DNA of 64,000 nucleotides from Ginglymostoma cirratum (lineage: Eukaryota): NCBI GenBank assembly GCA_024137785.1, contig JAHRHZ010000046.1:7504024-7568023 (forward strand), in the 5' to 3' direction. Positions 7,530 through 63,085 of this stretch are shown here, piece after piece. The notes under the pieces are model-generated. The model saw nothing but the letters and a program-made list of their open reading frames with translations. It searched no databases and was not told the DNA's origin. Made by a program: the position numbers and the translations under genes. The stretch's first letter is position 1; each line of letters opens with the position of its first letter.

Positions 7530-7628
7530 TGAGATATCAAGGTGTAGAGCAGGATGAGCACAGCCGGCCAAGCAGCATCAGAGGAGCAGGAACGCTGACG
7601 TTTCGGTCTGGACCCTTCTTCAGAAACT
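7530..7628 (-). mobile_element. Penelope-like terminal-repeat fragment with minimal hammerhead ribozyme core
   Basis: Reverse complement reads CTGAAGA-agggtccagacc-GAAACGTC followed by a tail shared with 14190-14725 and 15763-15860. Confidence 0.7.
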
Positions 7629-8184
7629 GTCACTGTTGTGTCTAGATTCACTAAATGAAATATTGCAATTAGAAATTAGGTCATTCAAGAGCACAAGAGC
7701 TTTGTGGCCCCATTCAACATCAGACAGAGTTCCAACAGTATGGTTTCAATGCGCAGGACCAAAATTAATCTGATGTTTTTATTGATATGAATTTGTTTGT
7801 TCTATTGATTTCACACCAAAGCATTAAAGTGATGTGCTGCATTTTCTATACTTGCAATAGAGAACCATTCAGTTTAGTGATGCACCAAATGATTTTTGGT
7901 TAAAAGAAAACACTATATTTTAGATAGAAAAAGGTTTATTTGTAAACTGAGAAAGATACAATATTGGAAAATGTAGATCCTGTCTGGTTTTCTTCAGTGT
8001 CTTGTATCCCTACTTGTAACATTGGGACTGATATTATCCTGTTTCTGACAACATTGGAAAATCTTTCCAAGAAAAAGTACACCCTTACAATTAAGAAGCA
8101 CGTGGTACCAAAGGATAGCACATGAATCAATGCTGACTACTAAGCTGCTGATTTAACGGTCTCAGTGATGCCAGTATGCAGAGA

Positions 8185-8580
8185 AATAAAAATGTGCATC
8201 TATATAGCTACGTATCTCTAAAAGCAGCAGAATATTTCTAAGGGCATTGACTGTTGCTATGTCTGCACATGACAACCATTGTTTAAAGAGTAATCTGTCT
8301 TGAAACAGCAATTTAAAAATGATTCACTTATTTGTTCTTATGGCAGTGATTGAGTGGCAAATTTGAGGAAGATTACTAGGAGAATTCTTTTCTTCAAATA
8401 ATGCTGTAGAGTTCTTAATATCTCCCAAAGCCACCAGAAAATGCAGGCCCAAAGGCTAGAACTCTTGAAAATGTAGCATTTTAAAAATTTGCTTTGAAGT
8501 ATCAAAGTCTGTGAAAACTCAACCCCTGGAGTGGGGCTTCCATCTCCAGTCTTCTGCTGCTAAATTGAGACTGAGTTAAA
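8185..8580 (-). mobile_element. Degenerate Deu-domain SINE (SacSINE1-like)
   Basis: Reverse L2-type tail (tgcatctatatagc) and a central segment ggagaattcttttcttcaaataatgc resembling the reverse-complement Deu domain as recalled. Confidence 0.45.
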
Positions 8581-8814
8581 CAATCTTTGCAAGATGAGAT
8601 TATTAAAAGAAAAAATGCAAAAGCTGGTATTGTGCCTCTCTTTCAAAATTGGTGTTCCACAGCATGGTCTCAATGCATCTCATTCACCCTTATTCAATTA
8701 ACTATGGTGTCAAGAATGACCAAACCTTGAAAAAATGGTAAACTGTCTATGAAATCATAAAGGCTTTACACAATTAGCTTATCTCCCTGGCATTGTTCAT
8801 CGGTAAAACAACTC

Positions 8815-8970
8815 ATCTTCAGAAATGAGCAGTTCTGAAGAGTTATATTAGTCTTGAAAGGTCAACTCTGTTTCTCTCTCCACAGATGCTACCGGACCTG
8901 CTGAGCTTCCCCAACAGTTCCTGTTTTCTTTCTTTCAGATTTCCAGCATCCACAGTATTTTAGTTTCATT
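8815..8970 (+). mobile_element. Penelope-derived short repeat arm with degenerate hammerhead core
   Basis: cagttCTGAAGA...GAAAGGTCaactctgtttctctctccacagatgct...ctgctgagc, the same family as 62890-63085. Confidence 0.65.
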
Positions 8971-10574
8971 ATTGTTCGTAGGTAGTCTGGCTTTAGAAAC
9001 CCCGCTTTAAAGTTCCACTTCTAATTAAACTTTATTCAACCTGGTGACTACCTGAGGAATCAGCATCACCTCAACATGATTCAAGACTAATGCAGATGGA
9101 AGCTCTTGTAAATTGGCACTGCTTATAAATCCCTAGCTCTTACAGTAAAAGCAAAGCTACATTGTCAAGATGAAAATAAGTGGGAAATGGCAATGGAAAT
9201 GGATTCTTTCAATTTTAATTTTCTGAATAATGATAGTTACGTGCCAGGTGTGCAACTCTTTTATATACATAGACAAATACACTTCTACAAAAACCAAATA
9301 TTCTTTTTATCTGATGTATATTATAAATAAATAATTAATGCTTAAATGCATTTACGAAAGTAATCCGACCTTCGAGATCAGATATGGATCTGTAGCCTTG
9401 CACTTGCTCTCTATTCTCACTCTCCATTCTCAGTTTGACATAATTTAGACTCTTAATTCCGACTTCAAGCCTTAGGTTTCACTCACAGAGAGGATTTTCA
9501 TTCCAAACTCTTCCATAAAGATGGACCTGTTTGCATTCACCAGTTATTGAAACAGGTAAACTATCTTGAAACAGGGAAACAGGGAAAATATCTTGAGTAG
9601 TACTTTATCTTTTCTAGTACCTGAAAGGTTGTATTAATTTGAGGCTGGGTATTGTATATTTGATGTATCATATTTTTGATGTATTTTGGTGGGAAATGTG
9701 GGGGTTGTTTAAGCTATTTGTTTTCATTCACCCTTGTTAATTATCAGTTTTGCTTTAGTAGATCTTCATGCAAGTTAAGATTTCTAACATCTCATAACAA
9801 ATGTAATTTACAACATCTTGAGTTAGCAAGGAACATTTAATATAGGAACAGCAGTGTACCAGATGGAGAATGATCAGCGTACCCTAGTGAGCAGCTTTAC
9901 AGCATAATGTTTCCTAGTTACCAAGATTATGATCTAATCCAATATGGATAATAAAACAGATAACAAAACTTGCCATCATCCATGTCCTGGGCATGATCCT
10001 TAGAGAGAAGCTCATGACTCTTTCACATACAGTTACCTAATTAGAAATTATGGAGTTAATTTCTTAAAAACATTTTTTTTTATTCATACAGTCTTCGAAT
10101 GTGGGCATCACTGACTGGGCCAGCATTTATTCCCCATACCCAGTTGCCCTTGAGAAGTTGGTAATGAGGTGGTTTCTTGAACCGCCACTGTGAAGTTGCC
10201 CACAAAGACCTATTTATCTTTCTAATGTGGATTTCACCTTCCCTGTTAATTTCACTCTGTCACCCAGTAACAATTATATCACAGTCAGCAAAACACGAAT
10301 CAAATACCACCGGATTTTTCACTGTTAATCTGATACTTTCACTTTTATTTAAAATTTTACAGAAAAAAATTGTTTAAAAAATATTTAATGTTATTTCAGC
10401 TTTGGTCTGTATATGTACCTTTAGTGTACAGCTTCTGTCTGTATATGTATCTTAGTAAATGCTACCTTCGGGGAGTAAGGTAGAATCTGAAAAATCATAC
10501 ACCAGCTATTTATTCAAAAACAGATACAGCGTGAATTTATATCATAATAATGAAATTTGGTATTATCAAAGGAT

Positions 10575-10817
10575 CTCTACCTTGTGGAAACAGGCCATTC
10601 AGCCCAACAAGTCTATACCAACTCTCTGAAGAGCATCCCATCCAGAAACCCTGCATTCCCCATGGATAAACCCCCTGACCTACACATCTTTGGACTGTGG
10701 TAGGAAACTTGAACACCCAGAGAGAACGTGCAAACTCCACACAGACAGTCACCTGTAGCTGGAATTGAACCCAGGTCCCTGGTGTGTGAGGTAGCAGTGC
10801 TAACCAGTGAGCCACCC
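10575..10817 (-). mobile_element. HE1/V-SINE-like tRNA-derived SINE
   Basis: Reverse complement of the 25192-25500 family (gtggctcactggttagcactgct...gggttcaattcc...gactgtctgtgtggagtttgcac). Confidence 0.85.
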
Positions 10818-11094
10818 TTTACACAGATGTAAAATTAGTTTATCAGGCATATTGAAAGTGTTTAGCAGCAATTATGAAATTAGTACTCTGTTAAAAGCTC
10901 AATTACATCTCATTCAAAAAAGTGTAACTTTTCCGAGGGTATCTACAGTAAGACTAATGGTTTAAACAACCACATTTTTATAAATTCCTTGATATCTTCT
11001 TGATTGTAGTTTGCAAAATATTCAATAGGGCACCTCTGGACAAGTGGTGACTACTTCTGGATTTTTATGATAAGCTACACATTTGTAGAATTCA

Positions 11095-11230
11095 AAATAA
11101 AAACAGGAAGTGCTGGAGAAACCCAGCAGGATGGGCCGAGAGAGAAACAGAGTTAATATTTCCAGTCTGGTATAACTTTTCTTCAGAACACACTATTTCC
11201 ATTTCAGAATTCTCCAGTATGTTGCTTTAA
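11095..11230 (-). mobile_element. Penelope-derived short repeat arm
   Basis: gctggagaaacccagcagg...gagagaaacagagttaatatttcc...ttcttcagaac, the reverse orientation of the 8815-8970 family. Confidence 0.6.
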
Positions 11231-61766: not shown

Positions 61767-61844
61767 GTGAGTGCAAGCAAGCGCCCTCTGACCAACCAGG
61801 GAGGTGGGATCACCGTCTGTCCCTTACCCCTGGCAACTTTCCAC

Positions 61845-62025
61845 CATTGGAGAAACTCAGCAGGCCTGGCAGCATCTTTGGAGAGAAAACAGAGTTAACG
61901 TTTCAGTCCAGTGATCCTTCATAGCCCTTGAATGTTCTAAACAAGCGTCACTGAACTCCAAATGCTAACTCTATTTTCTCTCCACAGATGCTGCCACACC
62001 TGCTGAGTTTTTCCAGCATCCGACT
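61845..62025. mobile_element. Palindromic Penelope-derived element
   Basis: Inverted arms ggagaaactcagcagg..tggcagcatct.tggagagaaaa.agagtta / taactct.ttttctctccacagatgctgcca.acctgctgagttttcc. Confidence 0.75.
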
Positions 62026-62139
62026 TTTACCTACCAATTAATTGTTTTTGGGAGGGCTTGGGTTTCAACTGACCAATATACTGGAAGTGCTGATACTGGG
62101 CACAGAAGGGATGGAGAGATTGGCCTCTTCCTGTAAAAG

Positions 62140-62405
62140 AAAAACTTCCAATGCTGAAAATCTGAAAGGCAGAAATTGCTGGAGAAACTCTGCGGATCTG
62201 GCAGCATAGGTGTAAAGAGAAACAGAATTAATGTTTGGGGTCTGGTGACCCTTATTGGGAAATGGAGTGACCGCCAGGCTAACAATCAATTAACCCTTAC
62301 GGTGCATCCGTTCTAAGAAGGATCCCAAATGTTAACTGTGTTTCTCTCTACATAGATAATGCCAGACCTGCTGGATGTCTTTCAGCAATGTCTGTTTTTG
62401 GTCTC
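62140..62405. mobile_element. Palindromic Penelope-derived element
   Basis: Same family with inverted arms and a ~70 bp spacer; hammerhead cores degenerate. Confidence 0.7.
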
Positions 62406-62499
62406 GTTCTGTGTCCGTTCATTCTGCTATAAGCACGTGTAATTCTAAGTACAAAGACATGTAGCCAATTATTACGGAGATTAAAATGGTGTGGTAAAA

Positions 62500-62625
62500 T
62501 ACGACCGGATGCTGGAGGTTAGAATAGAAAAAACGAATATCTCAGCAAGGCAGGCAGCATCTGTGGAATGGAGGAGAGAAAGTGGACTTTTCAGATTCAT
62601 GATCTGTACCCAGGACTGGAAAACA
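62500..62625 (-). mobile_element. Penelope-derived repeat arm
   Basis: gatgctggag...ctcagcaaggcaggcagcatctgtgga, a left-arm orientation copy. Confidence 0.55.
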
Positions 62626-62889
62626 CGGAGATGTGACAGATTTTAGGCGGTTGCAGAGGGAGCCAGAGGGTAAATGGTAGAAGGAATTGAAGAAAAGGAT
62701 GGCGGGTGCGAGGCCCACTGAGACAAGATGCTAAAACAAAAGGTGGCGGATTTCCAGCGAAAGCTTACCGCGATTGAATGAAGCTTCTGATTAAAGTCAA
62801 GCTGCAGTTTATTGGAATGACTGTGTTGTGGGGCTTGACGTGAGGTTAGTTGTGAAACTGACACTAGTCACAGCTATATTGGTACGAAT

Positions 62890-63085
62890 TAAACAAAAAA
62901 AGTCAGAAATTGCTGGAAAACTCAGCAGGTCTGTGGAGTGGGAAAGCAAAGTTAACATTTTGGGTCTAGTGACCCTTCTTGAGTTCTGAGGAAAGGTCAC
63001 CGGACCCGAAACGTTAGCTCTGTTTTCTCCTTCACAGATGCTGCCATACCTGCTGAGCTTTTCCAGCAACTTTCCTTTTGTTCTT
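62890..63085. mobile_element. Palindromic Penelope-derived element
   Basis: Inverted arms centred near 62982; the right arm carries a well-preserved hammerhead motif. Confidence 0.75.
62981..63020 (+). ncRNA. Minimal type I hammerhead ribozyme motif (sense to GATA3 pre-mRNA); activity unproven
   Basis: gaguu-CUGAGGA-aa-gguc-accg-gacc-c-GAAAC-GUU-agcuc. Stem I 5 bp (one G.U), stem II 4 bp, helix III reduced to the palindrome AACGUU. Confidence 0.55.

Follow-up and report, generated by a model that had tools for sequence, protein, structure and literature searches.

The 64,000-nt stretch of the genome of the shark Ginglymostoma cirratum analysed here (contig JAHRHZ010000046.1, positions 7,504,024 to 7,568,023; hereafter the window) contains recurring hammerhead ribozyme motifs, which raises the question of what kind of element has left them there. 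An earlier note on this DNA had reported the pattern CTGAnGA...GAAA-NN-T-H at eight places and ascribed it to repeats derived from Penelope-like elements (PLEs). A direct check of the sequence recovered the pattern at all eight coordinates and on the strands given, with C3 at 7623(-), 8835(+), 14634(-), 15768(+), 30680(+), 34362(+), 34350(-) and 62986(+); the one exception is the arm at 34350(-), in which G8 is changed to A so that the core reads CTGAAAA. Individual arms are named here by the position and strand of their C3. Taken as a whole, the feature consists of 14 short mutated insertions, most of which carry a minimal type I hammerhead motif. We propose, with a probability of roughly 0.72, that these are abortive, 5′-truncated insertions of Penelope-like retrotransposons, which probably arose from uncleaved RNA and are predicted to be inactive now.

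As a control for chance occurrence we used 300 block-wise dinucleotide shuffles of the window. A descriptor consisting of the core, GAAA and NN-U-H had eight matches in the window compared to a mean of 1.27 in the shuffles, none of which reached eight, and the additional demand for a stem II of at least 3 bp and a stem I of at least 2 bp left four matches compared to 0.04 (again 0 of 300 shuffles). The loosest descriptor, core plus GAAA, returned 14 matches versus 5.3 in the shuffles, a count that 2 of 300 attained; six of these 14 matches lack U-H and lie outside all three repeat families described below, e.g. the one at 10626(+). With the strictest descriptor, demanding both stems of at least 4 bp and a Watson-Crick palindrome, no match was obtained in the window. 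The shuffle comparison hence rules out a chance origin of the motif, and the number of motifs does not equal a number of independent events because the matches stem from just a few repeated sequences. A relaxed scan that permitted one mismatch and the U3-A8 variant found only 14634(-). A covariance model built from 12 arms had 14 matches with E < 0.01, all of them within the three families, and four weak matches outside them with E values of 0.98-4. An Rfam scan of the window gave 12 weak matches, none to a hammerhead family and none at the gathering score, and a reversed-window control gave no profile match below an E value of 1.8. Two of the Rfam matches, on the hairpins at 34314-34398 and 61877-61987, were dismissed as chance microRNA hits.

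Profile searches sorted the arms into three repeat families with four (F1), 14 (F2) and two (F3) arms. These 20 arms, together with short inverted stubs, form the 14 insertions, which cover 2403 bp or 3.8% of the window; an extra inverted arm at 45253-45274 was left out of this count. F1 (7623(-), 14634(-), 15768(+)) possesses a GTC cleavage triplet and a helix I of just 2-3 bp (TT/AG, TTT/AAG), and F2 (8835(+), 30680(+), 62986(+)) an agtt/aact helix I. Both are distant relatives of each other, with 58 of 78 nt identical, F2 probably comprises several subfamilies, and F3 resembles the other two over the 27-29 nt of the motif only. Three families are present, and the earlier note, with its proposal of at least two, had merged F1 and F2 into its family A: the gagtt stem I ascribed to it is found in F2 as agtt/aact and not in F1 with its shorter helix. 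The AAGCTT palindrome ascribed to family B, which corresponds to F3, is present only in 34350(-), whereas 34362(+) reads AAGGTT. With 14 insertions in 64 kb, i.e. one per 4.6 kb, the estimate of one copy per about 5 kb holds as an average but conceals an uneven spread, with 8 of the 20 arms lying within 1.4 kb and no core-bearing arm between 34.5 and 61.8 kb.

The consensus published for minimal hammerheads of metazoan PLEs combines CUGANGA with an extra base before a G-C-closed helix II, GAAA, a palindromic NN, U-H (GUC or GUU/CUU) and a helix I of 2-5 bp (PMC4209133), and the shark motifs share these traits. Also in common are the presence of several families per genome and a majority of solo copies, which were ascribed to truncated PLEs in that study. 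Such motifs were counted there in PLE terminal repeats about 4,000 times in coelacanth and about 9,000 times in Xenopus, mostly solo and in some cases as opposite-strand pairs. These pairs are 100-700 bp apart in PMC4209133, whereas they abut head to head within 5-20 nt here, and the helix II of 4-5 bp in the shark arms is likewise unlike the minimal hammerheads described there. The searched part of the supplement text of that study contains no shark entry. Since the motifs match the consensus in this supplement, their designation as minimal type I hammerheads of the PLE kind stands, and the class assignment made in the earlier note is probably right.

The anatomy of the insertions was analysed with respect to their ends. 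Nine of the 14 insertions consist of two inverted arms placed head to head, each 12 to about 135 nt long, and one (14190-14721) is a partial tandem of the kind that forms pseudo-long terminal repeats (pLTRs). In each of the three families the 3′ ends fall on two sites about 34-36 nt apart. Relative to C3, F1 arms end at +96 (two arms aligned; the TTATCTC motif at their end also terminates a third) and at +130, F2 arms at +93 to about +109 and at +128 to +138 with one outlier at +80, and F3 arms at about +84 and +120. Seven of the nine inverted insertions end at site 1 on one side and at site 2 on the other (p = 0.09 against 50:50), which corresponds to seven of the eight that can be classified (p = 0.035). 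At the opposite side, the start of 12 of the 20 arms lies on the 5′ strand of helix I, 3-6 nt upstream of C3. Among eight F2 arms the identity amounts to 0.76 at positions -1 to -3 and to 0.26 beyond -7, two F1 arms stop at the edge of helix I, the F3 arms meet at this edge, and the F1 tandem copy runs 87 nt further upstream. The other eight arm starts are located in the core (two), the tail (three) and the tandem (two), or are too diverged to be placed (one). None of the 20 arms begins at the cleavage site, which would lie at about +30. Both end patterns, the starts at helix I and the mixed 3′ ends, rest on small samples. Duplications of 6-14 bp abut both ends of seven of the 14 insertions (p ≤ 0.025, 16 boundary pairs tested against 4000 random boundary pairs) and are strongest at 15751-15861 and 8804-8970 (14 bp, p ≤ 0.0005); an unanchored duplication search had missed the duplication of the F3 insertion, which was found in the anchored test.

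Partial tandems, inverted head-to-head repeats, a tail of 30-40 bp and target duplications are known marks of endonuclease-containing (EN+) PLEs (PMC3846280, PMC8557442), and the shark insertions share with these elements the 5′ truncation, the partial tandem, the inverted terminal repeats and the tail. The target duplications measure 8-10 bp in EN+ PLEs and 6-14 bp here. Unlike EN+ PLEs, the shark insertions nearly all comprise 100-140 nt per arm, and no reverse transcriptase (RT) or endonuclease sequence was found in the window. In the Poseidon element of Anolis carolinensis (PAc), the PLE tail has been shown to extend from one internal RT start site to the other, both target strands are cut and then extended by the PLE protein, with uncleaved RNA as the main template, and the hammerhead cleaves only in the presence of the protein (PMC11167929). 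PAc and the shark families would have in common two RT start sites downstream of the hammerhead that delimit the tail, the uncleaved RNA template and the cutting and extension of both strands of the target. They differ in their sequence families and in that the PAc open reading frame (ORF) starts inside the hammerhead, whereas an ORF-like frame in the shark starts about 170 nt downstream of C3.

On this basis we envisage that a PLE protein encoded elsewhere would cut both DNA strands some 6-14 bp apart, and that, primed by each 3′ end, reverse transcription would then begin at one of two internal sites located about 65 and about 100 nt downstream of the point of hammerhead cleavage. The synthesis would pass through the uncleaved hammerhead and mostly halt at its 5′ edge, after which two complementary DNAs (cDNAs) would be joined head to head, or one cDNA would be joined to the target. 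The lack of any arm, out of 20, that starts at the cleavage site suggests an uncleaved template and agrees with the anole PLE. The hammerhead would be a passenger of the pLTR, and in the parent element its cleavage would require pairing into a dimer via the palindrome as well as the help of protein. After insertion the copies would have decayed, CpG sites first. Arkhipova et al. attributed such junctions between head-to-head arms to self-priming, with an antisense strand as the template (PMC3846280), an origin which may also be compatible with the window.

To what extent the motifs are still ribozymes was addressed by scoring the 16 arms with a GAAA region, leaving out 14270(-), from which GAAA is deleted, and three tail-only arms. 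Both core boxes are intact in seven arms spread over all three families, and the G10.1-C11.1 closing pair after one extra base is likewise present in seven. Helix II reaches 5, 4 and 3 bp in 62259(-), 14634(-) and 34362(+), one arm per family, and is mostly broken elsewhere, while helix I measures 3-5 bp in F2 and F3 and 2-3 bp in F1. The palindrome at positions 15.2-16.2, which replaces helix III, is of the Watson-Crick type in five arms (CG in three, GC and TA in one each) and reads TG or CA in seven further ones. Eight of 14 F1/F2 palindromes are TG, CA or TA in place of CG, as CpG decay produces. Not one of the 16 arms combines all hammerhead features in the consensus register, which agrees with the statement that most copies are mutated; 14634(-), 62986(+) and 34362(+) are each one feature short of the complete motif. 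Internal deletions are visible in four arms, 14270(-), 62313(+), 63121(+) and 8804-8826(-). All four take away a portion of the hammerhead, have their start in the 5′ core or helix II or just past it, and possibly reflect jumps of the RT across the hairpin.

The pairing had been claimed to be kept despite differing sequences. This is the case between families but not in most single copies, where for instance 8835(+) and 30680(+) have a disrupted stem II, the latter also lacks one base of the palindrome, and 62986(+) has A.C as its closing pair. In an alignment of 12 arms, 74% of the cells are paired compared to 67% after shuffling, a value reached by 2 of 500 shuffles, and slid controls are beaten as well; the covariation score in the same alignment is reached by 10 of 500 shuffles and the number of pairs changed on both sides by 73 of 500. 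Almost all double-sided changes in helix I trace back to a single insertion, namely the F3 one with its two arms, so that the covariation reduces to one or two independent events and the strong form of the claim is not borne out. Each family rebuilds the published architecture, yet statistical covariation is not established. Selection on the core was likewise not detected in six F2 arms, in which the core is no more conserved than the tail (8/66 versus 56/338 mismatches, p = 0.46), even though four of these arms had been found via the motif, which favours the core.

Folding predictions for whole insertions yield a hairpin of -99.9 kcal/mol at 62893 and one of -108.7 kcal/mol at 34269, with a probability of 0.0 for helices I and II. 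In the insertion 62893..63082, the left arm would sequester the 62986(+) hammerhead in a 200-nt hairpin, while its stem II is predicted to fold with a probability of 0.96 in isolation. For three native copies, the energy of the modelled double-hammerhead dimer exceeds the dimer minimum by 4.5, 26 and 32 kcal/mol. The copies are predicted to be inactive as ribozymes today. Minimal hammerheads are described as inactive as monomers and weak as dimers (PMC4209133), and eight of nine frog dimers that were assayed showed no cleavage (bioRxiv 10.64898/2026.07.22.740005).

We also searched the window for a parent element. Of 589 open frames of at least 45 amino acids, the 258 with at least 62 were scanned with Pfam; GATA zinc fingers were the sole matches above the cut-off, and none of the 258 frames matched an RT or GIY-YIG family. 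Membership in the PLEs thus rests on anatomy and motif; in short, truncated copies such domains would not be expected. The F1 tandem contains the ORF-like frame mentioned above (14182-14502(-), about 170 nt downstream of C3), which may be a PLE N-terminus. Two word-index protein searches with this frame gave no match, an exhaustive search returned two leucine-rich-repeat proteins from starfish and maple that were regarded as spurious, its atlas matches of 0.75-0.76 were uninformative, and it had no counterpart in the supplement of PMC8557442.

Several points weigh against the insertions being truncated PLEs that are inactive now, among them the null results just given on RT and GIY-YIG families and on the ORF-like frame in the protein searches. 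Seven of the 14 insertions have no convincing target duplication, and the insertion boundaries were set by eye, some of them after the flanks had been seen. The mixed 3′ ends occur in just seven of nine inverted insertions. F2 and F3 have no longer copy in the window, so that the 5′ edge of their arms may mark where a short master element naturally ends, and not a truncation. With respect to inactivity, a single change would complete the motif in three or four arms, 7623(-) already counts as complete once a 2-nt bulge is tolerated, and the folding predictions ignore the help of proteins and co-transcriptional folding.

If such short masters existed, i.e. palindromic or single-arm mini-pLTRs starting at helix I and copied in trans by PLE proteins, the families would be truly non-autonomous. 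The 12 of 20 arms that start 3-6 nt upstream of C3, the drop in identity among the eight F2 arms from 0.76 at -1 to -3 to 0.26 beyond -7 and the 13 of 14 insertions devoid of a coding remnant would all be expected from masters of this kind. However, junctions, arm lengths and internal deletions vary in all nine inverted insertions, arms within one insertion are just 73-86% identical, and one F1 copy reaches 87 nt upstream and into a partial tandem, so that we regard short masters as rather unlikely. For the same reasons the distinct non-autonomous retroelement system of the earlier note is not sustained: ends and junctions are not constant among the copies, and the F1 copy continues into the tandem, two points that fit truncated PLE insertions better. 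The other non-coding candidates, non-LTR retrozyme monomers that would have been cut out by tandem hammerheads, circularised and re-inserted, share with the shark copies the lack of coding sequence, a type I hammerhead and the link to PLE terminal repeats (PMC7229834; bioRxiv 10.64898/2026.07.22.740005). The preprint just cited reports their origin from these repeats and their presence in one chondrichthyan tested, and the tandem at 14190-14721 carries two motifs 364 nt apart. Retrozymes form head-to-tail arrays with a motif per unit, whereas the shark copies are dispersed, single or head to head, and no hammerhead-bearing tandem array exists in the window. A tandem-dimer arrangement is not borne out, since just one of 14 insertions has two motifs in direct orientation and the second of these lacks GAAA; no arm begins or ends at the cleavage site, and the motifs are of the minimal PLE type, whereas the retrozymes in PMC7229834 carry canonical type I hammerheads. 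A retrozyme origin is thus very improbable.

Short size, long inverted arms and flanking duplications are also features of miniature inverted-repeat transposable elements (MITEs), non-autonomous DNA transposons whose inverted repeats would here hold a hammerhead-like word by chance. This reading, to which we give hardly any weight, conflicts with ends that are asymmetric by about 35 nt, duplications that vary from 6 to 14 bp, the occurrence of single arms and of a direct tandem, and the full hammerhead architecture that is rebuilt in each of the three families. Finally, the host might have kept a ribozyme or an RNA hairpin that acts on the pre-mRNA of GATA3, a gene whose exons are described below, 62986(+) being the best example: it is sense to GATA3, has an intact core and a stem II predicted to form with a probability of 0.96 in isolation, and a single intron holds 5 of the 14 insertions in a stretch of 1.4 kb (p = 0.002 if placement were uniform). 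Yet its closing pair is A.C, its inverted partner would bury it in the hairpin of -99.9 kcal/mol, no intact dimer partner is located nearby and the core is no better conserved than the tail. PLEs are reported to insert beside earlier copies (PMC6765202), which explains the intron cluster, and a use by the host is barely credible. Truncated PLE insertions hence remain the reading that we prefer.

What is new here are the shark families, whereas minimal hammerheads in PLEs, spread by the thousand over the genomes of fish, coelacanth and frog, and the anatomy of inverted repeats with a tail have already been published. For the whale shark genome, Penelope elements have been listed. The literature searches turned up no paper that deals with PLE hammerheads of sharks; repeat databases and libraries may already hold these families. 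The value of the insertions lies in their use as material, since copies at about 4% of the window would amount to a large sample of PLE 5′ and 3′ ends. The role of the hammerhead in PLEs is still open in the field (PMC8557442, PMC11167929). Statistics on the ends of thousands of copies could test template cleavage and the pairing of start sites at one break. That thousands of shark fossils could in this way show the integration mechanism of PLEs and the role of their hammerhead is a tentative lead which may well fail.

Among the F1 insertions, the single arm at 7531..7629(-) (C3 7623) ends at 3′ site 1, is flanked by a target duplication of 6-8 bp and possesses an intact core, an ACGT palindrome, a helix I of 2 bp and a 3-bp stem II that forms only via a 2-nt bulge. 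The inverted insertion at 15751..15861(+) consists of a 12-nt inverted arm from site 2 and a long arm (C3 15768) that runs to site 1, and its 14-bp target duplication contains one mismatch. The partial tandem at 14190..14721(-) carries the hammerheads with C3 14634 and C3 14270 in the order upstream leader, hammerhead, tail, about 150 nt with the ORF-like frame, leader and second hammerhead. Its units are 93% identical; 14634(-) has the best-preserved stem II, and a 15-nt deletion removes GAAA from 14270(-). In both units a pyrimidine-rich run ending in CAG, at 14655-14680(-) and 14291-14316(-), is located about 22 nt upstream of C3 and looks like a 3′ splice site. In Penelope of Drosophila virilis, an intron ends at helix I (PMC4209133); the helix I of F1 is weak.

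The F3 head-to-head pair at 34269..34481 (left arm C3 34350(-), right arm C3 34362(+)) is predicted to fold into a single hairpin. Its right arm is longer by about 35 nt of tail and reads the non-palindromic AGGT at the palindrome position, and the insertion has an 8-bp duplication with one mismatch. The F2 insertions outside the intron cluster comprise two head-to-head insertions, one single arm and two without a hammerhead. In 8804..8970(+), the long right arm (C3 8835) ends at site 2 and has a broken stem II, the left arm is short and internally deleted, and the target duplication spans 14 bp with two mismatches. The insertion at 11097..11232(-), which the earlier note had overlooked together with most of the intron cluster at 61846-63232, has a long arm (C3 11186) with broken stem II that ends near site 1 and a short inverted arm from site 2; a target duplication was sought at both ends and none was found. 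The single arm at 30675..30773(+) (C3 30680) ends at site 1, its stem II and palindrome are broken, and it is flanked by an imperfect target duplication of about 14 bp. A tail fragment without hammerhead was detected by profile search at 17579..17616(+), and an inverted pair of tail segments, also without hammerhead, at 45341..45467, with site 1 on the left and site 2 on the right. Upstream of the latter, at 45253-45320, lies an extra inverted F2 tail stub with 22 nt matching its right end, which may represent a nested or compound insertion.

The host gene of the cluster was identified by two GATA zinc-finger frames and exon mapping, which place coding exons of GATA3 at about 52016-52250, 53385-53923, 58623-58768 and 61640-61765 on the plus strand. 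For the exon at 53386-53919, the identity amounts to 97% with sawshark, 95% with catshark and 93% with sawfish and does not exceed 80% with tetrapod and bony-fish GATA3; these values by themselves mark the host as an elasmobranch, probably a shark. Since the last coding exon of GATA3 lies past the end of the window, the region 61846-63232 is intronic. The cluster in this region comprises 8 of the 20 arms and starts 80 nt from the splice donor, in the first 1.5 kb of the intron that follows the second zinc-finger exon. It consists of five F2 or F2-like insertions. In the head-to-head pair at 61846..62028, the left arm begins inside the core and the core of the right arm is broken; in the pair at 62134..62400, the left arm runs to site 2 and the right arm to site 1, both cores are broken and an imperfect duplication of 14 bp is present. 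A divergent single arm at 62505..62615(-) ends at site 2 and has a broken 5′ core. The pair at 62893..63082 contains in its right arm 62986(+), sense to GATA3, with intact core, palindrome and a 5-bp helix I and with A.C at the 10.1-11.1 closing pair. The inverted insertion at 63103..63232(+) has a short arm from site 1 and a long arm (C3 63121) to site 2, in which stem II is deleted and helix I occurs as the variant gtc/gac. It is possible that the cluster yields several long double-stranded RNA hairpins in the GATA3 pre-mRNA, which could be substrates of RNA editing.

The 27 kb from 34.5 to 61.8 kb, comprising the upstream region, the promoter and the first introns, contain almost no dispersed repeats, as expected near a developmental regulator. 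Elsewhere in the window, broken copies of the 3′ end of a long interspersed nuclear element (LINE) with an RT-like translation are found at 12700-13709(+), 2-479(-) and 23851-24055(+); they have no Pfam match and presumably belong to CR1. Another dispersed repeat family, which resembles short interspersed nuclear elements (SINEs), occurs at 10553-10815, 25197-25505 and 63376-63476, and the core-like word at 10626(+) lies inside the first of these copies and was rejected as a false hammerhead match. Two imperfect 31-nt inverted repeats at 26254-26357 and 41560-41627 are unrelated to F1-F3.

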